From the IMG/VR virus record IMGVR_UViG_2740892489_000001: 49,169 nt of DNA; one strand, written 5' to 3'. This stretch comes from a virus. Taxonomy: Duplodnaviria > Heunggongvirae > Uroviricota > Caudoviricetes. The position numbers and the translations under genes were made by a program. Each line of letters starts with the position of its first letter. Position 1 is the stretch's first letter. Under the pieces are notes generated by a model that had not been told where the DNA came from, did not search any database, and saw only the letters and a program-made list of their open reading frames with translations. This document shows positions 1-48,619 of the stretch, piece by piece.

Positions 1-1237
1 CTACGATAACCGCGCATTCAACATGGCTATCTGTTCGTCGTTCATGTCATCAATCCACATACCGTAAATTTCATACACCATCTGCGCAGTTTCATGCCCC
101 ATTTGGCTGGCTATAAATGCCGGGTTCGCTCCTGCCGTCAACAGCCAGCAGGCAAAAGTATGCCGCGTATGGTACGGATTACGGCGGCGAATACCAGCAC
201 GTTTTACTGCTGCATTCCACCTTGCCCCCAAACTGCTTACCGAGTAATAAGGTTTTTGTTTTCCGTTACACACCCTGGGCATGAAAACAAAATGCAGTTT
301 TTGCTTTTCGGTTCTGCCGTACTCCCGATGATAAAAGGTGATTTCGCTTTTGCGATGATGCCCGGTCAGTTTGTATTGCTCCTTCAGTGCTTCAAGAGCA
401 GGCTGCAGTAGTGTTACTGTTCGGATCCCGGCATTTGTTTTTGGGGGACCGAACATATCAAGTATCGTCAGGTTTCTTCTGACATTCACTATTCCCTTTT
501 CGAGATCCACATCCTCCCACGCCAGAGCTGCCAGTTCCCCGTGACGAAGTCCTGAGTAAACGGCAAATTTCCACAAGTTCTGGCTCTGTCCTTTTTCACT
601 TTCCATTAATGCATTGAATTCTGTTTTAGATAACGGATCAGGCTTTATTCTGTTTCGCTGTAATTTTTTTACTCCTTCAAATGGTTTAGTTGATATAAAT
701 CCCGACTGATACGCAAAACGCAACAGCGAACAGAGCAGGGCGATATAGTTATCAACTGTGCGCACGGTTCTTCCTTTTTTTGTTGGATCTTGGATTATCC
801 AGGTAAAGCGTTTCTCCATGCAGCAGTTCATTCCGGTAGTTTAAGATATCGCTATAACGAATATGTGATATCGGGGTACTTTCACAAATTATTATTCTGA
901 GTGTTTTTAATTGTGATTTCGTTTTCTTCATTGTGTTTGTTGTTAACTCTGTCTCTTTAATTTTTGTCCAGATATCACAAAGCTCTCCGAACGTTTTTAT
1001 GACTCTCGTTGTCACCATTTTTGCCCCAGTGCTGGACTGGGGAAAACGTCTTAAATACTCAAATTCACCGGAGTTTATTTCATGAACTATCAGCGATCTT
1101 AAATTTCCGGCCTTTTTAATATTACTGTTTGTAATCTCCCAGCCTTTTAATGTTTCCCGACATCGTTTTCCTCGAAACATGAACCAGATGCGAATGTATC
1201 TACCTCTAATCTCGACACCTGTTGGTAATTTAGACAT
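1..1237 (-). CDS. intR: Tyrosine integrase (IntR-like); frame broken at T7 run 775-781
   Basis: ORFs 752..1237 (N-terminal part) and 1..831 (C-terminal catalytic part) overlap in different frames and together give about 411 aa. Confidence 0.85.
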
Positions 1238-11891: not shown

Positions 11892-12410
11892 ATGGAAATA
11901 ACTAAAGAACGATTATTGGAAATAGCAAATCTTAGTGATGGGGCATTAAGTGATGGGAGAATTATTTCTCCTGATGCTTATGAATCAGTTACAAGTATAG
12001 AAATAATAACGATGGCTAGGATGCTTCTTGCGCGATTCAAAAAAGAATATAAAAAACAGGTAGATAGCAATGCTAATATATATGATATTTTGGACGGTTG
12101 GGGAGCCTGGGCTGTAGCTGAAAATAGTTCTATTGATTGGCAGGAAATAGCTGATAAATATAAAAATGTTGTTCCTCATGGTAAAAAATCACGTCGTCAG
12201 TGCAGCAATGATGAAGGGGGTATAATTGATACCTGCATGTTGAGGCTTAAACAATATAAGATAGATGACTATGAGTTAATTATCGCTCATTTTGTTATGG
12301 GAGTTTCATTGCGTTGTTTAGCTAAGATAAACGAATGTTCAGATGGTAAAATAAGGAAAAAAATGCAAATGGCAATGGGATTTATTGCAGGTTGTATCTA
12401 TTACCGTTGA
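11892..12410 (+). CDS. Q-antiterminator-like protein (QuuD/Q-933W type) with N-terminal extension; AT-rich
   Basis: DGWGAWA...KSRRQC...IIDTCMLRLK...FVMGVSLRCL...CSDGKIRKKMQ resembles the Q family signature as recalled; GGAG 6 nt before ATG 11892. Confidence 0.55.
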   Translation: MEITKERLLEIANLSDGALSDGRIISPDAYESVTSIEIITMARMLLARFKKEYKKQVDSNANIYDILDGWGAWAVAENSSIDWQEIADKYKNVVPHGKKSRRQCSNDEGGIIDTCMLRLKQYKIDDYELIIAHFVMGVSLRCLAKINECSDGKIRKKMQMAMGFIAGCIYYR

Positions 12411-12416
12411 TTTTTT

Positions 12417-12437
12417 AAGGCGAGTTTCTCTCGCCTT
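12417..12437. other. Perfect 8-bp stem-loop between convergent genes (possible terminator)
   Basis: AAGGCGAG-TTTCT-CTCGCCTT, T6 on the 5' side only; not a canonical hairpin-plus-U-tract in either direction. Confidence 0.4.
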
Positions 12438-12440
12438 AAA

Positions 12441-13924
12441 TTAACTACAGTAACTATTGATTAAGTGAGAACTGAGCCAAGAGGTAATTGCATTCGTAGC
12501 ATGTTCATCAAGCATTGAGAATCCTAATATGATCATTATAAATGAAATCAGCAAAGTCAGAATCACAACGAATGTGGCTATAATCTGATAAGCTTTGTAT
12601 GCTTCTCTTAATGGTGTGACTGCAAGATTCTCATAGTCAGTATCATCAAGAAAACCATATAGTTTATCTCTCCAGACTAGCCTAGTATTATCAAGTATCT
12701 TAAAGTAATTTTTATTTATGAAGAGAGTTGTAACCTGAGATATAAAAATATATATAGATAACGCGAAGAACATATATGGGAATATGTTATTGGTTATATT
12801 AATCTTTGATGCGTCTAGCGCATATTTTATTGCAAATAGACTTATAACCAGAGCCAGATCTTTCCAAAGAGCGGATGTGATGTCTTTAGACTGACTTATT
12901 ATTTTTTGCGTGTCTTCAGCTAAGGTTTTCCTTAGATCGGACAGAGATTTAATAGTCTCTCTGCTGCTAGCGCGAATGTGGGCCTTATATAGTAATTTTG
13001 CTGACTCAAAGGCCATAGGGAGTTTTTTTTGGTAAACCCTCACAGAAGGATACATACTCTGGCCATTCTCGTGCTAACTCACTTGTGAAGAAAGTATGTT
13101 TGAGTTCAATCTCATTGCCCTCAATAAAGATCCAGTTTATTACAGTTTGTAAAACTGAATAGTCGGAAAGCAGAATGTCTGGATCTCCATAAATTAATTT
13201 TTTTGGTGGCTTTCCAGTTAAACAAATTGATTTCTTTTCATCTGCTAATAATTCATTAACGAGAGTGCGACAAAGCATATTGCAGGAAACTTGTAACCAT
13301 TTTTTGAAAAAGTTGTCCTCTGCCTCAGGCATTTTATAAAGTACCCAAGGAGCTATATCAGATGCAGGCATGAACTCACTAGAATAGAATTTAACGTAGC
13401 TCTGTAAATTGATTGAAGTTCGTACGGTTTCATTAGATTCAATTTTTTTCTGGAGCATGGTTCCATGGCTCAACAGAATATCCTAAAGTTTCAAATCCAT
13501 GTTTCAAACCGAGAATATTCACTTTATTGGTTATTGATACTAAATCATCATTGTGTAGAAAAACATTCCACCCTTCGAGCGTAAAAATATACCTGTTATT
13601 TTCGAATGCAATGCATTTTAGCGTAATGTTAAGTTTATCACCTTCACTGCATGACGATGGTTTTACTTCATCATTACAGTCATCTTTAACAGTAATTTCA
13701 ATCCAATTTGGTACGTTTTCGTAAACGTACTGCCAAAGAATGAGTGCATCTTTGTCCATTTTGGCAGAAATTAGAACGCGCGCAGAATCATTTTTTATTG
13801 ATTCTGATGCCAAAAATTCAGGGTCTTTCCTTGACGCCTGTATAGACTCATCGATTTTTTGAAGTATCGATGTCATCAGTAATAATCCTCGCAGTAGTAA
13901 CAATAATTTGTTTTCGCCCATCAT
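12441..13924 (-). CDS. Hypothetical protein with multi-pass membrane C-terminus; three track ORFs joined across homopolymer indels
   Basis: ORFs 13439..13924, 13006..13473 and 12441..13055 become one frame if T7 13443-13449 and T8 13023-13030 are each one base shorter; hydrophobic helices in last ~200 aa. Confidence 0.5.
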
Positions 13925-14907
13925 CTAAGTTTCTTATTTCTGGACGGTCATCTTCATTATAACTAATTACTACACTTTCTGCAGTTTCAATTTTTCGTCT
14001 TGGTGGTTTATGAATGCCATCTGCTTTTATAGTAAAGGATTCGCCTTCAATACCAGCATTTTTTGTTTGAGTTTTGAATGTGTTGAGAATTGGTGATTTT
14101 TCATCTAACGGCCCAAAAATGCTGGTCAATAACGGAGAAGCATCTTCAGGATTATATTCGAAATCAGCTCTGCTTAAAACTTCATATATTTTATTTACGC
14201 CGCTTTTTTGAATTGACTCTGGCAATAATTCTTTATGCCTTTTGAAGGTTATTTTCAGCGCATCAATAAGCTTATTGCAAAGTTCAATTTCAGAGTTGAC
14301 TCTTTTAACATTTAAGAAGCCTTTAAAATATCCTGAAATATTGGTTCTTTTACTCCTGTCTTTTACAATAACTTTCCCGCCTTTCCCACTTGGATCAAGT
14401 TGAATTAACGCTATTTTTTTGCATTGCCTCAGCTTTTTTTACGAAAGTTTCATGAAATCTTTCTAAAGTAGGCATTTGTTCTTCAGATAACTTTTCGTCA
14501 AGAACATAACGAACCACATCTTCATTATCGTATTTTATAATTGCATAGAATTTTTCCTTATCTGAAACCAATTCAAATAAGAAAAAGCATCCCATACTCG
14601 TGTTACCGCTAGAATGGTGTGACTGAAAATCACTGGCCAGTAGCTTCGATTGTTCTGTAAAACAATTAGCTTCAGCATCTGCTTTATCTCTAATGATACG
14701 CAGGATTCTTTCGGTATTTGAATTCTCCAGAAAAGTGAAAAGATTTCCTTTCAGTGAAGATTTGATACGTTCAAGAAAAAAATCCACATGCTGAACTGGT
14801 TTTATTTCTTTGAGAAGTGTCGGTGCTTCAAGATTCTTACCTACAACGTGAAAGATCATTTTATTAATGACTAAATTTTGTACGTCTTGTTCAGAAAGGA
14901 AACTCAT
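13848..14907 (-). CDS. NdpA/YejK-like (nucleoid-associated protein family) candidate; two track ORFs joined
   Basis: ORFs 14395..14907 and 13848..14225 fuse if T7 14414-14420 or 14434-14440 is one base shorter; motifs MIFHVV, GCFFLFELV...YAIIKYD, IQLDPSGKGGKVIVKDRSK recall the YejK family; GGAG before start. Confidence 0.45.
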
Positions 14908-39747: not shown

Positions 39748-42700
39748 ATGGGTAAAGGCAGCAGTAAGGGGCATACCCCGCGCGAAGCGAAGGACAACCT
39801 GAAATCCACGCAGTTGCTGAGTGTGATTGATGCCATCAGTGAAGGGCCGATTGAAGGTCCGGTGGATGGATTAAAAAGCGTGCTGCTGAACAGTACGCCG
39901 GTGCTGGACAGTGAGGGGAATACCAACATCGTCGGTGTCACGGTGGTGTTCCGGGCTGGTGAGCAGGAGCAGACTCCGCCGGAGGGATTTGAATCCTCCG
40001 GCTCCGAGACGGTGCTGGGTACGGAAGTGAAATACGACACGCCGATCACCCGCACCATCACGTCGGCAAACATCGACCGACTGCGCTTTACCTTCGGTGT
40101 GCAGGCACTGGTGGAAACCACCTCAAAGGGGGACCGGAATCCGTCGGAAGTTCGCCTGCTGGTTCAGATACAACGTAACGGTGGCTGGGTGACGGAAAAA
40201 GACATCACCATTAAGGGCAAAACCACCTCGCAGTATCTGGCCTCGGTGGTGGTGGATAACCTGCCGCCGCGCCCGTTTAATATCCGGATGCGCAGAATGA
40301 CGCCGGACAGCACCACAGACCAGCTGCAGAACAAAACGCTCTGGTCGTCATACACCGAAATCATCGATGTGAAACAGTGCTACCCGAACACGGCACTGGT
40401 CGGCGTGCAGGTGGATTCGGAGCAGTTCGGCAGCCAGCAGGTGAGCCGTAATTATCATCTGCGCGGGCGCATTCTGCAGGTGCCGTCGAACTATAACCCG
40501 CAGACGCGGCAATACAGCGGTATCTGGGACGGAACGTTTAAGCCAGCATACAGCAACAACATGGCCTGGTGTCTGTGGGATATGCTGACCCATCCGCGCT
40601 ACGGCATGGGGAAACGTCTTGGTGCGGCGGATGTGGACAAATGGGCGCTGTATGTCATCGGCCAGCATTGCGATCAGTCGGTGCCGGACGGTTTTGGCGG
40701 CACGGAGCCGCGCATCACCTGTAATGCGTACCTGACCACACAGCGCAAGGCGTGGGATGTGCTCAGTGATTTCTGCTCTGCGATGCGCTGTATGCCGGTA
40801 TGGAACGGGCAGACGCTGACGTTCGTGCAGGACCGACCGTCGGATAAGGTGTGGACCTATAACCGCAGTAATGTGGTGATGCCGGATGATGGTGCGCCGT
40901 TCCGCTACAGCTTCAGCGCCCTGAAGGACCGCCATAATGCCGTTGAGGTGAACTGGATTGACCCGAATAACGGCTGGGAGACGGCGACAGAGCTTGTGGA
41001 GGACACGCAGTCCATTGCCCGTTACGGTCGTAACGTCACGAAGATGGATGCTTTTGGCTGTACCAGCCGGGGGCAGGCACACCGCGCCGGGCTGTGGCTG
41101 ATTAAAACAGAACTGCTGGAAACGCAGACCGTGGACTTCAGCGTGGGTGCCGAAGGGCTTCGCCATGTACCGGGCGATGTCATTGAAATCTGCGATGATG
41201 ACTATGCCGGTATCCGCACCGGCGGGCGCGTGCTGGCGGTAAACAGCCAGACCCGGACGCTGACGCTCGACCGTGAAATCACGCTGCCATCTTCCGGCAC
41301 CACGCTGATAAGCCTGGTTGACGGGCAGGGGAGTCCGGTCAGCGTGGAGGTTCAGTCCGTCACCGACGGCGTGAAGGTGAAAGTGAGCCGTGTTCCTGAC
41401 GGCGTTGCTGAATACAGCGTATGGGGGCTGAAGCTGCCGACGCTGCGCCAGCGCCTGTTCCGCTGCGTGAGTATCCGTGAGAACGACGACGGCACGTATG
41501 CCATCACCGCCGTGCAGCATGTACCGGAAAAAGAGGCCATCGTGGATAACGGGGCGCACTTTGACGGCGACCAGAGCGGCACGGTAAATGGTGTCACGCC
41601 GCCAGCGGTGCAGCACCTGACCGCAGAAGTCACCGCAGACAGCGGGGAATACCAGGTGCTGGCCCGCTGGGACACGCCGAAGGTGGTGAAGGGCGTGAGC
41701 TTCCTGCTTCGCCTGACCGTGGCAGCGGATGACGGCCGTGAGCGGCTGGTCAGCACGGCCCGGACGACGGAAACCACTTACCGCTTCACACAACTGGCTC
41801 TGGGGAACTACAGGCTGACAGTCCGGGCAGTAAATGCGTGGGGGCAGCAGGGCGATCCGGCGTCGGTATCGTTCCGGATTGCCGCACCGGCAGCGCCGTC
41901 GCGGATTGAGCTGACGCCGGGCTATTTTCAGATAACCGCCACGCCGCATCTTGCGGTTTATGACCCGACGGTACAGTTTGAGTTCTGGTTCTCGGAAAAA
42001 CGGATTGCGGATATCAGGCAGGTTGAAACCAGCGCGCGTTATCTTGGTACGGCACTGTACTGGATAGCCGCCAGTATCAATATCAAACCGGGCCATGATT
42101 ATTATTTTTACGTTCGCAGTGTGAACACCGTTGGCAAATCGGCATTCGTGGAGGCTGTCGGCCAGCCGAGTGATGATGCATCAGGCTATCTGGATTTTTT
42201 CAAAGGCGAGATAGGGAAAACCCATCTGGCTCAGGAGCTGTGGACGCAGATTGATAACGGTCAGCTTGCGCCTGACCTGGCTGAAATCAGGACGTCCATT
42301 ACGGATGTCAGCAATGAAATCACACAGACCGTCAATAAGAAACTGGAAGACCAGAGTGCAGCGATCCAGCAGATACAGAAGGTTCAGGTTGATACAAATA
42401 ATAATCTGAACAGCATGTGGGCTGTGAAGCTGCAACAGATGAAGGACGGACGCCTTTATATTGCGGGTATCGGTGCCGGTATTGAGAATACGCCAGCAGG
42501 AATGCAGAGTCAGGTGCTGCTGGCGGCAGACAGGATTGCGATGATTAATCCTGCGAATGGCAACACAAAACCGATGTTTGTTGGTCAGGGTGATCAGATA
42601 TTCATGAATGAAGTGTTCCTGAAGCGCCTGACGGCCCCCACCATTACCAGCGGCGGCAATCCTCCGGCCTTTTCCCTGACACCGGACGGAAAGCTGACCG

Positions 42701-43227
42701 CTAAAAATGCGGATATCAGTGGCAGTGTGAATGCGAACTCCGGGACGCTCAACAACGTTACGATAAATGAGAACTGTCAGATTAAAGGGAAACTGTCAGC
42801 CAACCAGATTGAAGGCGATATTGTCAAAACAGTGGGTAAGGCTTTCCCGCGGGACTCCCGGGCACCGGAGCGGTGGCCATCAGGAACCATTACCGTCAGG
42901 ATTTATGACGATCAGCCGTTTGACCGGCAGATTGTTATTCCGGCGGTGGCATTCAGCGGTGCTAAACATGAGAGAGAGCATACTGATATTTACTCCTCAT
43001 GCCGCCTGATAGTGAAGAAAAATGGTGCTGAAATTTATAACCGTACCGCGCTGGATAATACGCTGATTTACAGTGGTGTTATTGATATGCCAGCTGGTCA
43101 CGGCCACATGACGCTGGAGTTTTCGGTGTCAGCATGGCTGGTAAATGACTGGTATCCCACAGCAAGTATCAGCGATTTGCTGGTTGTGGTGATGAAGAAA
43201 GCCACCGCAGGCATCAGTATCAGCTGA
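39748..43227 (+). CDS. Host specificity / central tail fibre protein J
   Basis: 1159 aa, immediately after I. Confidence 0.9.
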
Positions 43228-43294: not shown

Positions 43295-43893
43295 ATGCGT
43301 AAAGTTTGTGCAGCCATTTTGTCCGCAGCCATCTGTCTGGCCGTATCCGGTGCGCCTGCATGGGCGTCTGAGCAGCAGGCCACACTGAGCGCAGGGTATC
43401 TTCATGCCCGTACGAACGCTCCCGGCAGCGATAATCTGAACGGGATTAACGTGAAATACCGTTATGAGTTTACGGACACGCTGGGGCTGATTACGTCATT
43501 CAGTTATGCCAACGCTGAAGATGAGCAAAAACGCATTACAGCGATACCCGCTGGCATGAGGATTCCGTGCGTAATCGCTGGTTCAGCGTGATGGCGGGGC
43601 CGTCTGTGCGCGTGAATGAATGGTTCAGCGCGTATGCGATGGCGGGTATGGCTTACAGCCGTGTGTCGACTTTCTCCGGGGATTATATCCGCGTAACTGA
43701 CAACAAGGGGAAAACGCACGATGTGCTGACCGGAAGTGATGACGGTCGCCACAGCAACACGTCTCTGGCGTGGGGAGCTGGCGTGCAGTTTAACCTGACC
43801 GAATCGGTGGCCATTGATATTGCTTATGAAGGCTCCGGCAGTGGTGACTGGCGCACTGACGGTTTCATCGTGGGTGTCGGTTATAAATTCTGA
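43295..43893 (+). CDS. lom: Lom-family outer membrane protein; frame broken at A5 run 43527-43531
   Basis: Signal peptide MRKVCAAILSAAICLAVSGAPAWA; C-terminal ORF 43567..43893 (...SVMAGPSVRVNEWF...GVGYKF) joins with one extra A. Confidence 0.85.
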
Positions 43894-43920
43894 TTAGCCA
43901 GGTAACACAGTGTTATGACA

Positions 43921-43946
43921 GCCCGCCGGTTCAGGCGGGCTTTTTT
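43921..43946 (+). terminator. Rho-independent terminator after lom
   Basis: GCCCGCC-GGTTCAG-GCGGGC followed by T6. Confidence 0.65.
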
Positions 43947-43957
43947 GTGGGGTGAAT

Positions 43958-46900
43958 ATGGCAGTAAAGATTTCAGGTGTACTGAAAGACGGTGCAGGTA
44001 AACCGGTACAGAACTGCACAATCCAGCTGAAAGCAAAACGTAACAGCACCACGGTGGTGGTGAACACGCTGGCCTCAGAAAATCCGGATGAAGCCGGGCG
44101 TTACAGCATGGACGTTGAGTACGGGCAGTACAGCGTTATTCTGTTGGTGGAGGGATTCCCGCCGTCACATGCCGGGACCATCACCGTGTATGAAGATTCC
44201 CGACCCGGTACGCTGAATGATTTTCTCGGTGCCATGACGGAGGATGATGCCCGTCCTGAGGCACTGCGCCGTTTTGAACTGATGGTGGAAGAGGTGGCGC
44301 GTAACGCGTCCGCGGTGGCACAGAACACGGCAGCCGCGAAGAAGTCAGCCAGCGATGCCGGCACATCAGCCCGTGAGGCGGCAACCCATGCGACTGATGC
44401 TGCAGGCTCAGCACGCGCAGCCAGCACGTCAGCCGGACAGGCCGCTTCGTCGGCTCAGTCAGCGTCTTCCAGCGCAGGAACGGCATCAACAAAGGCCACT
44501 GAAGCATCGAAAAGTGCTGCTGCTGCAGAGTCCTCAAAAAGCGCGGCAGCTACCAGTGCCAGTGCCGCGAAAACGTCAGAAACGAATGCGGCAGCGTCAC
44601 AAAAATCTGCAGCCACTTCTGCATCCGCCGCGACCACGAAGGCGTCAGAAGCTGCCACCTCAGCCCGGGATGCGGCGGCCTCAAAAGAGGCAGCGAAATC
44701 ATCAGAAACGAACGCATCATCAAGCGCCAGTAGTGCCGCTTCCTCGGCAACGGCGGCAGGCAATTCCGCGAAGGCGGCAAAGACGTCTGAGACAAACGCC
44801 AGGTCTTCTGAAACGGCAGCGGGACAGAGCGCCTCGGCTGCGGCAGGCTCAAAAACAGCGGCTGCGTCGTCTGCCAGTGCCGCGTCAACAAGTGCCGGGC
44901 AGGCCTCAGCCAGTGCCACCGCCGCCGGAAAATCGGCAGAAAGTGCCGCATCGTCTGCTTCAACAGCCACAACGAAGGCTGGCGAAGCCACTGAACAGGC
45001 CAGCGCAGCAGCGAGGTCTGCTTCCGCAGCGAAGACATCCGAGACGAACGCGAAAGCGTCGGAAACCAGCGCAGAATCCTCAAAAACGGCTGCCGCATCG
45101 TCCGCCAGTTCGGCGGCGTCATCGGCATCATCGGCGTCTGCTTCAAAAGATGAGGCGACCAGACAGGCGTCAGCAGCGAAGGGCAGCGCCACGACGGCAT
45201 CCACGAAGGCGACAGAGGCAGCTGGCAGTGCGACGGCGGCAGCTCAGAGCAAAAGTACGGCGGAATCCGCGGCAACGCGCGCCGAGACAGCGGCAAAACG
45301 GGCAGAGGATATTGCATCCGCCGTGGCGCTTGAGGATGCGAGCACGACGAAAAAGGGGATAGTACAGCTCAGCAGTGCGACCAACAGTACGTCTGAAACG
45401 CTGGCGGCAACGCCAAAGGCAGTAAAAGCAGCCTATGACAATGCAGAGAAACGTCTGCAGAAAGACCAGAACGGTGCTGATATTCCCGACAAGGACCGCT
45501 TCCTGAGTAACATTAATGTTTACAGCAAAGGTGAAGTGGATCAGAAAAAGGGGATGCGATACGTTGTGGTAAATGCCCCGGCGGGTGTCCAGGAAGGTAA
45601 ATATTATCCGTTAGTGATAAAAAGGAATGACAGCCATCGGGCATCCCGCGTTGTCATTTCAACGCCAAGTCGCTCAGCTAATCACAGAATGAATAATTGT
45701 GAGTTTAATGGTTTTGTTTGCGCAGGCGGCTGGACGGACCGGGGTAGCTATGCCTGTGGTATGTTCTGGGCTTATTCAACATCGGAACGCGCTATTCATT
45801 CCATTCTGATGAGTAATAAAGGCGATACCGTAGACAGCGTATTCTATATAGAAGGTGGGGCATTTCCCGTAGAGGTCTTTTTAGAAGAAGGTCTCTCCGT
45901 TACTGCACCTGCTTCTGATTATATTGTTGCTGAAACGACTTATAAATTTGGCGCAACTGATCCTTATTCTGAATCAGTTGCGGTAAATTTAATTTTAGAT
46001 TTTAAACAAGGTAATGGATTTTATAGTTCGTATCCTGTTTTGAGTAAGTCAGACATTAGCGGGAATAAGATTTACGCTAATGATGAAGTTATTGTCCGTA
46101 GTCAGAACGCGTTAAGGATGATTGCAGGTGATTACGGTGTCATATGGCGAAATGATGGAGCAAATACTTACTTGCTCATGACTGATAAAGGCGACCAGTA
46201 CGGTGGCTGGAACGGTCTTCGACCATTTGCAGTAAATAACGCAACAGGTGAAGTGACGATCAATACACCACTTAATTCTCCTAAGGGGATTAAGGGAAAT
46301 TCTGATACAGCTACGAAACTTCAGACAGCAATAAAAATATCTGGTGTTTCGTTTGATGGTTCTACTGATATCACTTTAACCGCTGCGCATGTTGCTGCTT
46401 TTGCCAGAAGAGCAACGGATACGTATGCCGATGCGGATGGGGGCGTTCCATGGAATGCCGAATCAGGCGCTTACAATGTCACCCGCTCTGGCGACAGCTA
46501 TATTCTGGTTAACTTCTATACCGGAGTCGGAAGTTGCCGGACCTTGCAGATGAAGGCACATTACAGAAATGGAGGTCTGTTCTACCGTTCCTCAAGAGAT
46601 GGCTATGGTTTTGAGGAAGACTGGGCAGAAGTTTATACCTCGAAAAATCTTCCACCAGAAAGCTACCCAGTCGGCGCACCAATCCCGTGGCCATCAGATA
46701 CCGTTCCGTCTGGTTATGCCCTGATGCAGGGGCAGGCTTTTGACAAATCTGCATACCCGAAACTTGCAGCGGCTTATCCGTCAGGCGTGATCCCTGATAT
46801 GCGTGGCTGGACGATTAAGGGCAAACCTGCCAGTGGTCGGGCCGTATTGTCTCAGGAACAGGACGGCATTAAATCGCATACCCACAGCGCCAGCGCATCC

Positions 46901-47353
46901 AGTACGGATTTGGGGGCGAAAACCACATCGTCGTTTGATTACGGCACTAAATCCACGAATAACACTGGTGCGCATACCCATAGTTTAAGTGGCAGCACGA
47001 ATGCAGCTGGTAATCACAGCCATAGAGATGGCCGTCGATTTAACCCCAGTGTTTTTAAAGATACTTATCAATATGGTTATACAAGCTCAGGTCAAAATAC
47101 CTGGGGTGTACAAGGCTCAGTAGGTATGTCTACGGGGTGGTTAGCTAATACCAGTACAGATGGTAATCATAGCCACTCACTGTCCGGCACAGCAGCATCT
47201 GCAGGTGCACACGCGCATACTGTCGGTATTGGTGCTCATACGCACTCCGTTGCGATTGGTTCACATGGACACACCATCACCGTTAACGCTGCTGGTAACG
47301 CGGAAAACACCGTCAAAAACATCGCATTTAACTATATTGTGAGGCTTGCATAA
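43958..47353 (+). CDS. Side tail fibre protein (Stf-like)
   Basis: [28 protein letters not shown]-terminus, long Ala/Ser/Thr repeat region, His-rich C-terminus (HTHS, HSHS, HAHT). Confidence 0.85.
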
Positions 47354-47930
47354 TGGCATTCAGAATGAGTGAACAACCACGGACCATAAAAATTTATAAT
47401 CTGCTGGCCGGAACTAATGAATTTATTGGTGAAGGTGACGCATATATTCCGCCTCATACAGGTCTGCCAGCAAACAGTACCGATATTGCACCACCAGATA
47501 TTCCTGCTGGCTTTGTGGCTGTTTTCAACAGTGATGAGGCATCGTGGCATCTCGTTGAAGACCATCGGGGTAAAACGGTTTATGACGTAGCGTCAGGGGA
47601 CGAGTTATTTATTTCTGAACTCGGTCCGTTACCGGAAAATGTTACCTGGTTATCGCCGGAAGGGGAGTTTCAGAAGTGGAACGGCACAGCCTGGGTGAAG
47701 GATACGGAAGCAGAAAAAACTGTTCCGGATCCGGGAGGCGGAAGAAACAAAAAAACAACCTGATGCAGGTAGCCAGTGAGCATATTGCGCCGCTTCAGGA
47801 TGCTGCAGATCTGGAAATTGCAACGGAGGAAGAAATCTCGTTGCTGGAAGCATGGAAAAAGTATCGGGTATTGCTGAACCGTGTTGATACGTCAACTTCA
47901 CAGGATATTGAATGGCCAGCACTGCCGTAG
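47353..47930 (+). CDS. Tail fibre assembly protein (Tfa-like); frame broken at A6 47714-47719 and A7 47749-47755
   Basis: [37 protein letters not shown]... then C-terminal [21 protein letters not shown]... in ORF 47676..47930. Confidence 0.8.
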
Positions 47931-48028
47931 GGTAAAACATATAAATTCTATAATTAGATGTATCTTTCCATTTACGGCAAGGAAGGGGGCTTGGAAGACG
48001 TAAAGCATCTCACACCGAGATTATTTTT

Positions 48029-48619
48029 TTATATGTCAGGTGTCTGAAGTTTTGCTTTGGCTCTTAAAATGGTTTGCCGCGAGGTTTTGAATTCCCGGGC
48101 AATGGCACTTATACTTACACCTGACTTAATTCGTTCGAATACCACCTGTTTCTGTTCTTCATTTAACACAGGTGGTCGACCAAAACGTTTCCCTGCGCCG
48201 CGGGCTCTTACTATCCCGGAATGAGTGCGTTCAAGTAAAAGGTCTCGTTCAAATTCAGCGACTGCTGAAATTACTTGCATCATCATTTTTCCTGTTGGAC
48301 TGGTCAGGTCAATGCCCCCCAATGCTAAGCAATGCACTCTGATACCTGTTTCGGTCAGTTGTTCCACTGTTTTCCTGATATCCATTGCATTACAACCAAG
48401 GCGATCCAGTTTTGTCACAATCAATTGATCACCACATTTCAGGCGAGCAAGCAACCGGTTAAAACCAGGACGCTCACTGGTTGCTGCTGAGCCGCTAATG
48501 TGTTCTTCGATTATTTGCTGAGGTTTGATTTTAAAACCTGCACTTTCGATTTCCCGGCGTTGATTTTCGGTGGTCTGATCCAGCGTTGATATCCGACAGT
48601 AAGCAAAAATTCGAGACAT
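48029..48619 (-). CDS. pin: Serine recombinase, Pin/Gin/Hin-type DNA invertase
   Basis: [20 protein letters not shown] catalytic Ser motif and C-terminal HTH, 196 aa. Confidence 0.9.

Follow-up and report, generated by a model that had tools for sequence, protein, structure and literature searches.

Sequence evidence for two independently assorting modules in an stfR-type side-tail-fibre gene from a Rac-like Escherichia coli prophage

The stf gene at positions 43958-47353 of IMG/VR record IMGVR_UViG_2740892489_000001, a stretch of 49,169 nucleotides (nt) of tailed-phage DNA that we call the window, is in our judgement (probability about 0.9) an stfR allele, that is, the side-tail-fibre gene of a Rac-like lambdoid E. 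coli prophage, in which two modules, a mid-shaft cassette and the tip, have been swapped by recombination. Direct support for this reading comes from the domain homologies of the protein, the heptad periodicity of its shaft and the mapped breakpoints, from the way in which the two cassettes assort independently, and from the occurrence of these cassettes in a phage-plasmid and a virulent T-even phage as well. Modular exchange of tail fibres has been textbook knowledge since the early 1990s, and the gene is of an ordinary, catalogued kind whose sequence is already present in hundreds of genomes; the four-combination pattern, the heptad-quantised shaft, the widespread beta-sandwich and the near-identical tip shared with one virulent T-even phage are useful details rather than discoveries.

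The gene and its parts, in terms of which the evidence is given below, are as follows (GC3 denotes the guanine-plus-cytosine (GC) content at third codon positions).

43958..47353, plus strand: stf (stfR-type side tail fibre), intact coding sequence of 1131 residues, ATG at 43958 and stop codon at 47351-47353
43958..44302, plus strand: N-terminal anchor domain and linker, residues 1-115 (PF08400, PDB 9e7m)
44303..45352, plus strand: proximal shaft of 50 heptads S-A-x-x-A-x-x, residues 116-465
45353..45502, plus strand: conserved hinge or junction with the motif ...QNGADIPDK, which probably serves as a recombination anchor and bounds the variable region on the left
45503..46393, plus strand: central low-GC3 cassette, "allele A", residues 516-812, read as an exchangeable shaft module
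45536..46063, plus strand: beta-sandwich module of unsolved structure, residues 527-702
46058..46327, plus strand: T4 gp34-type trimerisation domain, residues 701-790 (PF21446; PDB structures of gp34)
46391..46675, plus strand: Mu-S-like beta domain, residues 812-906, a conserved shaft domain and likely right-hand recombination anchor
46658..47353, plus strand: T4-gp37-type collar, needle and tip, residues 901-1131, with seven HxH boxes
46975..47185, plus strand: tip cassette, "allele 1", predicted receptor-binding head; core 47015-47178, residues 1020-1074, between two GNHSH boxes

Independent assortment of the central and tip cassettes

Breakpoints were located by sliding-window identity on stored alignments with eight relatives. 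In the alignments with Kati and mEp332, identity stays at or above 97% as far as about 45490, drops to 47-73% until about 46390, and then recovers to at least 97%. Against mEp460, PhiR68_2 and lambda, the region 45430-46660 cannot be aligned. Every left breakpoint falls in the hinge, at about 45400-45500, and the right breakpoints for mEp460, lambda and a phage-plasmid described below lie at about 46655-46690. The central cassette itself is 97-100% identical in Turner and PhiR30_1, and 47-73% identical in Kati, mEp332 and E. coli K-12. A second variable patch, at 46975-47185 in the tip, is distributed differently: it is 100% identical in Kati and mEp460, and 27-50% identical in Turner, mEp332 and lambda. 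The StfR protein of K-12 departs from the window protein only at these two places.

All four combinations of the two cassettes were found, namely A1 in the window, A2 in Turner, B1 in Kati and B2 in K-12 StfR, and by the four-gamete criterion their coexistence shows that recombination has taken place between the two cassettes. Prevalence among 5426 complete E. coli genomes also differs, with 140 carrying the full gene, 157 the central cassette A and 1136 (21%) the tip 1.

An initial annotation, made by a model from the letters of the window, had described stf as a mosaic, and the sharp identity breakpoints at the low-GC3 segment bear this out. The comparison with related stf genes that it proposed has now been carried out; it returned the identity steps at the central cassette together with the further patch at 46975-47185, which lies inside the HxH region and had not been singled out. 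Uniform similarity to a single stf across the whole gene, which had been named as the finding that would speak against a mosaic, does occur in the 140 genomes (98-99% over the full length), but these are copies of the same mosaic and none is a parent.

Domain composition of the fibre protein

The N-terminus had been called similar to that of lambda Stf, and it is: residues 1-134 give an end-to-end match to the Pfam family phage_tail_N (PF08400; E=2.5e-71), the N-domain of lambdoid Stf and StfR proteins, and residues 1-94 match the solved N-domain of lambda Stf (PDB 9e7m; E=8e-51). In the Ur-lambda structure, this type of domain attaches the fibre to the tail-tip collar (PMC12617516).

Residues 116-465 form the Ala-rich heptad shaft expected of a lambdoid Stf or StfR. 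The region comprises 38% Ala, 24% Ser and 12% Thr (74% together) and can be read as 50 consecutive heptads whose register never shifts, with Ala at the fifth position in 47 of the 50. Autocorrelation at a lag of seven residues reached z=9.5 against shuffles, and all multiples of seven up to 42 gave z of about 8-9; Tandem Repeats Finder detected no DNA tandem array in the region. The Ala/Ser repeat is one of protein heptads encoded by degenerate 21-nt units. The initial annotation had placed about 330 residues of Ala/Ser/Thr-rich repeats at 44300-45350, which locates the region correctly and understates its length, which is 350 residues. Lambda stf lacks exactly 315 nt, or 15 heptads, at window positions 44866-45180, and shaft length therefore varies in heptad units. 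The equivalent region of Ur-lambda Stf, residues 102-393, has been modelled as a proximal trimeric coiled coil (PMC12617516), and from that model we infer a coiled-coil fold for residues 116-465; at the usual coiled-coil rise per residue, this would give a shaft of about 52 nm, compared with about 36 nm for lambda.

The heptad region is also where the gene differs from its closest relative. Compared with the genome of E. coli 13KWH46 (99.4% identity), all 30 substitutions fall within 44760-45388, in two patches, and none in the other 4.2 kb compared, a clustering that suggests gene-conversion tracts among stf paralogues. Three large open reading frames (ORFs) of 249-335 residues lie in alternative frames inside the heptad region, at 44355-45362 (plus strand), 44455-45204 and 44550-45317 (both minus strand); they can most likely be put down to the GCN/TCN-rich codons of the repeats, which rarely yield stops, in the same way as "orf206b", annotated historically inside lambda orf-401.

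The hinge that follows is shared with another phage fibre, residues 441-522 matching residues 91-173 of the Mu tail fibre protein S (PDB 5yvq/8ju3), and its equivalent in lambda, R393, is the point at which engineered lambda-P2 Stf chimeras were fused (PMC11338833). Beyond the central cassette, residues 812-906 again match Mu S, at residues 322-415 (PDB 8ju3; E=2e-20).

In the C-terminal half of the central cassette, residues 655-758 match PF21446 with E=3.6e-30 and 105.3 bits, against a Pfam gathering cutoff of 27, which places the domain in that family. Residues 701-790 match residues 1034-1119 of gp34 (PDB 4uxe/5nxf/9x3r; E about 1e-18), and this domain has 50-55% amino acid identity to gp34 of T-even phages. 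A word-indexed homologue search with the N-terminal half of the cassette yielded no more than 23 proteins, for the most part fragments with identities of 40% or higher, and hence a shallow alignment. The central cassette is, in our reading, a shaft or spacer module that can be exchanged, made up of a beta-sandwich and a gp34-type trimerisation domain; for an accessory glycan-binding role of the beta-sandwich there is only an outside chance.

The distal part is of the T4 gp37 type, with the collar, needle, seven GxHxH boxes and conserved C-terminus of such a tip all present. Residues 901-1131 match the T4 gp37 tip (PDB 2xgf; E=1e-83), and the collar (PF07484) lies at residues 906-953. The C-terminal HxH repeats that had been noticed earlier are real and number seven, starting at residues 974, 1006, 1020, 1071, 1085, 1094 and 1103 (nt 46877, 46973, 47015, 47168, 47210, 47237 and 47264, respectively), and in the alignment they pair one to one with the seven His boxes of T4 gp37. 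The T4 boxes coordinate seven iron ions (PMC6957217); by analogy, the needle of the window protein would be iron-stapled through its His boxes. The T4 gp37 chain descends along the needle, builds the tip and then runs back, and the contacts with lipopolysaccharide (LPS) and OmpC are made by I933-Y953, between the third and fourth His boxes (PMC6957217). The variable patch at 46975-47185 aligns to T4 gp37 residues 932-965, and we predict that it is the specificity determinant of the fibre, with receptor contact through residues of about 1020-1074.

Cassettes shared with a phage-plasmid and a virulent T-even phage

The central cassette occurs in a quite different fibre. A 113-kb E. coli phage-plasmid (NZ_JBWDPT010000001) encodes a fibre of 1708 residues (WP_475695580.1; 2465-8440 of the extracted locus) that shares window residues 208-899 at 93% amino acid identity, a stretch covering the late heptads, the hinge, cassette A and the Mu-S-like domain, with the cassette itself at 98% nt identity. 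Unlike the window protein, it has a different N-terminus and, distally, extra gp34-like repeats and a Peptidase_S74 intramolecular chaperone instead of a gp37-type needle. Its central module lies about 800 residues upstream of the distal end, and a separate gp38-type adhesin gene follows the fibre gene.

The tip has a different distribution. Its core, 47015-47178, has 96.3% nt identity (158/164) to gp37 of the virulent T-even phage P896 (Gaprivervirus, OL451225), at 2501-2710 of the extracted P896 locus, whereas the 509 aligned flanking nt are only 69% identical, and the limits of the shared core coincide precisely with the two GNHSH boxes. In a set of 50,697 phage records, the tip cassette was found in seven lambdoid phages and P896 only. 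As far as sequence can tell, this pattern indicates a recent exchange between temperate and virulent phages, one that is much more recent than the common ancestry of T4 g37/g38 with lambda stf/tfa (PMC3157838). Conserved motifs in the distal fibre genes of T-even phages were proposed as crossover points by Tetart et al. 1998, as that work is cited in PMC3157838; the shared tip core agrees both with that proposal and with the common ancestry. Recent temperate-virulent mosaics were not seen in coliphages outside stf (PMC3945230), and the sharing of the P896 tip stands against that picture.

We speculate, with more doubt than confidence, that both low-GC3 cassettes may be comparatively recent imports from AT-rich virulent phages, that prophages and T-even phages may share one pool of tips exchanged at the GNHSH boxes, and that the beta-sandwich may possibly form a second, lateral glycan-binding site.

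Alternative explanations

The genes around stf bear on the first alternative and are listed here together with the nearby features.

39748-43227: J, upstream of lom
43295-43893: lom, upstream of stf, split ORF
43920..43941, plus strand: terminator-like hairpin after lom, with an 8-base-pair stem containing 7 GC pairs and then a T-run
47353..47930, plus strand: tfa (tfaR-type fibre assembly chaperone), Caudo_TAP split over two ORFs
48029..48619, minus strand: pinR-type serine invertase of 196 residues, Resolvase and HTH_7, 98 nt from tfa

The locus could be a decaying remnant in which the frameshifts in tfa, lom and int are real and the intact stf ORF gives no functional fibre. Several genes are indeed broken. 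Compared with the intact lom of close relatives, the window has lost one A from an A6 run at 43526, which splits the gene into two ORFs; compared with intact tfaR genes, tfa carries two +1 insertions in A-runs, at 47714 and 47749 (A5 to A6 and A6 to A7); and the spacer between tfa and pinR has T7 in place of T6 at 48024. The integrase gene (window 1-1237, minus strand) is likewise divided into overlapping ORFs, an N-terminal part with Arm-DNA-binding and SAM-like domains at 752-1237 and the catalytic domain at 1-831, probably by another frameshift, and the Rac prophage of K-12 is itself defective. Against decay, all four indels fall in A5-A7 or T6-T7 runs, and not one substitution accompanies them over the approximately 4.2 kb outside the heptads in the comparison with the 99.4% relative. 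Because the changes are indels alone, confined to homopolymers, a pattern typical of sequencing error, we take the broken lom and tfa for probable artefacts of the source assembly. The stf ORF, 3.4 kb long, is intact, and close relatives have intact lom and tfaR. We consider decay unlikely. Of the Tfa chaperone gene expected downstream of a lambdoid Stf, the window has a Caudo_TAP gene split by the two homopolymer insertions; in the 99.4% relatives this gene is intact.

A second possibility, put forward in the initial annotation, is that receptor binding, and with it host range, resides in the AT-rich central segment (about 45550-46330), which would then be the recombined part. The position and the homology of the segment both speak against this. 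The central module is internal in 131 protein clusters, and in the phage-plasmid fibre some 800 residues and a separate gp38 adhesin come after it. The C-terminal half of the cassette corresponds to the trimerisation domain of gp34, which belongs to the proximal T4 half-fibre and does not contact the receptor. A gp37-type tip, the part in which contact residues have been mapped in T4, lies 600 nt downstream and varies independently, so that the equivalent contacts would be made within 46975-47185. The proposal is accordingly improbable, and we favour the reading of the segment as a shaft module.

The composition of the gene bears on a third possibility, that there was no recombination and that the compositional step reflects only amino acid usage and contrast. 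An AT-rich segment at about 45550-46330 had been reported, and it is real: GC is 0.335-0.445 at 45800-46300. GC by itself is nevertheless weak evidence of recombination. The Ala/Ser region upstream has a GC of 0.627 because the second codon position of Ala, Ser and Thr is GC-rich (GC2 0.794), whereas at third positions (GC3 0.546) it is no different from its neighbours; the high upstream value is thus an amino acid effect, and the abruptness of the step is partly one of contrast. Moreover, the central cassette, at a GC of 0.421, stands at the 18th percentile of the window (mean 0.471), which is unremarkable for this prophage. GC3, which is largely independent of amino acids, tells against this explanation. 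It starts at 0.54, falls to 0.28 and recovers to 0.52; the best-fitting change-points are 45770 and 46415, and 0 of 200 permutations reached the observed likelihood ratio. Both variable cassettes are GC3 troughs (0.343 central and 0.31 tip, vs 0.50-0.58 in the conserved parts). Together with the stepwise change of nt identity at the cassette edges and the existence of all four allele combinations, this makes an absence of recombination very unlikely.

Least credible of all is that the mosaic is a product of site-specific inversion, with PinR switching the C-terminus of the fibre in the manner of the Mu G, P1 C and e14 P systems: a 196-residue Resolvase/HTH_7 invertase does adjoin tfa on the opposite strand, and a driving role for invertases in ancient stf exchange has been proposed (PMC3945230), but a search of the whole window for the 26-base-pair hix/gix-type consensus with up to three mismatches gave no match, no inverted repeats longer than 20 nt were found flanking any part of stf-tfa, and the ORFs include no second, oppositely oriented fibre exon or copy of tfa, with only 98 nt between tfa and pinR. 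With the site and repeat searches empty, the idea of an invertible segment was rejected, and the pinR-type gene is an orphan invertase, as in K-12 Rac, with no invertible segment recognised in the window.

Several observations weigh against our own reading of an stfR allele with two swapped modules. The tip loop between the third and fourth His boxes has 48 residues, vs 34 in T4; it is not conserved, cannot be aligned residue for residue, and does not contain the T4-type residues (I933-Y953) that contact LPS glucose and OmpC, so that, although the architecture is the same, homology gives no warrant for assigning OmpC or LPS binding to it. The structure models are of single chains, whereas the fibre would be a trimer, and the model of the whole central cassette is poor, with a predicted local distance difference test (pLDDT) score of 53. 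On the left, the GC3 change-point (45770) is displaced inwards by about 270 nt from the sequence breakpoint (about 45500), and the boundaries of composition and of recombination coincide only on the right side; the unremarkable GC of the central cassette belongs here as well. The clues to the direction of the P896 exchange conflict, low GC3 suggesting a T-even origin and prevalence a prophage origin. Finally, if the tfa frameshifts were real, the fibre could not fold.

Proposed architecture and mechanism of exchange

We propose that Stf forms a homotrimeric fibre whose N-terminal domain would dock on the tail-tip collar. The fifty Ala/Ser heptads would build a thin coiled-coil shaft, followed by the conserved hinge and a distal rod consisting, in order, of the beta-sandwich, the gp34-like trimerisation domain, the Mu-S-like domain, and the gp37-like collar with its putatively iron-stapled needle. 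The hairpin tip of the needle, at residues of about 1020-1074, would contact the receptor, and the downstream Tfa chaperone would be needed to fold the distal part.

The gene would evolve as a string of cassettes, of which the central and the tip are exchanged independently. Homology anchors for such exchange could be provided by the heptad repeats, the GIVQLSS...QNGADIP hinge, the Mu-S-like domain and the GxHxH boxes, and the partners would be co-resident or infecting phages. The mechanism is presumably homologous exchange of the Red/RecA type. Exchange of stfR/tfaR between lambda and Rac occurs at about 2e-6 per infection and is largely dependent on Red-beta (PMC3945230).

Comparison with known fibres and significance

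The closest known system is StfR of K-12 Rac (b1372, 1120 residues), which resides in the same context (lomR-stfR-tfaR-pinR-ynaE in K-12, J-lom-stf-tfa-pinR-ynaE here) and has 84% amino acid identity overall, with at least 97% in the N-domain, heptads, hinge, Mu-S-like domain, collar and C-terminus. It differs in having the other allele at both cassettes, the central one being about 55-60% identical in amino acids and the tip loop being unrelated and 11 residues shorter. Ur-lambda Stf (774 residues; PDB 9e7m/9mgh for the N-domain; PMC12617516) resembles the window protein in its N-terminal anchor (93% amino acid identity over residues 1-94), heptad coiled coil, hinge, gp37-like collar and needle, C-terminal 60 residues and tfa partner. 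Lambda Stf differs by its 15 fewer heptads, by the lack of both the central cassette and the Mu-S-like domain (the unalignable 45430-46660), by a different tip loop and by one extra His box. Binding to OmpC has been reported for Ur-lambda Stf (PMC12617516).

The more distant likenesses are confined to single parts. The T4 gp37 tip (2xgf) has the same collar, needle, seven aligned HxH boxes and C-terminal motif, but its tip loop (932-965) is shorter and unrelated in sequence, and it sits on the long fibre of a contractile tail and not on the side fibre of a siphophage. The C-terminal region of T4 gp34 (PF21446; 4uxe, 5nxf, 5nxh) is about 50% identical, at residues 1034-1119, to residues 701-790 here; gp34, however, is a proximal half-fibre of 1289 residues, whereas the window has a single copy of the domain within a lambdoid side fibre. 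Mu S/S' (5yvq, 8ju3) shares the hinge motif (S 91-173) and the beta domain (S 322-415), but its distal fibre part is encoded in the Gin-invertible G segment, which has no counterpart here.

Side tail fibres set the adsorption speed and target strains of lambdoid phages, and fibre junctions are already used to engineer delivery particles, as in the lambda Stf chimeras fused at the hinge. The gene described here is no new kind of element; it offers a clean natural case in which two cassettes assort independently and the junctions are mapped (the hinge at about 45500; about 46390; His boxes at 47015 and 47168). The presence of a near-identical tip in temperate prophages (21% of complete E. coli genomes) and in a virulent T-even phage bears on the supposed rarity of recent temperate-virulent exchange, and also on the host-range drift of therapeutic T-even phages.

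Locus and minor observations

The gene order J-lom-stf-tfa is the same as in K-12 Rac and lambda, and stf thus occupies the position of a lambdoid Stf/StfR gene. The hairpin at 43920-43941 lies 17 nt 5' of the stf ATG, as in lambda, and the RefSeq homologue WP_074161850.1 starts at the equivalent ATG. A ynaE-like gene lies beyond the pinR-type gene. The integrase stands at the left end of the window, and this, together with the end of the late operon, means that the window spans a whole Rac-like prophage.

Full-length stf is 98-99.4% identical in nt in the 140 E. coli genomes that carry it, in which it is annotated as "prophage tail fiber N-terminal domain-containing protein" and accompanied by tfaR. 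In E. coli M24FEP, GF8, GF161, CDF6 and GF75, an otherwise 99% identical stf carries an IS3-family insertion of about 1.26 kb. The phage PhiR30_1 also matches stf over its full length, at 98.1%. This is the closest phage record (PV340558, 5001-8394 of the extracted locus); its stf is annotated as three coding sequences, and the single-base deletions seen in the alignments point to a frameshifted or mis-sequenced record.

The most AT-rich part of the window lies elsewhere, at about 11900-14900 (minus strand), with a GC of about 0.33. It contains a chain of overlapping minus-strand ORFs at 12441-14225 that gave no Pfam match, and a weak match to an NA37 nucleoid protein was found at 14395-14907. 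The ORF chain could represent one large accessory or moron gene broken by frameshifts.

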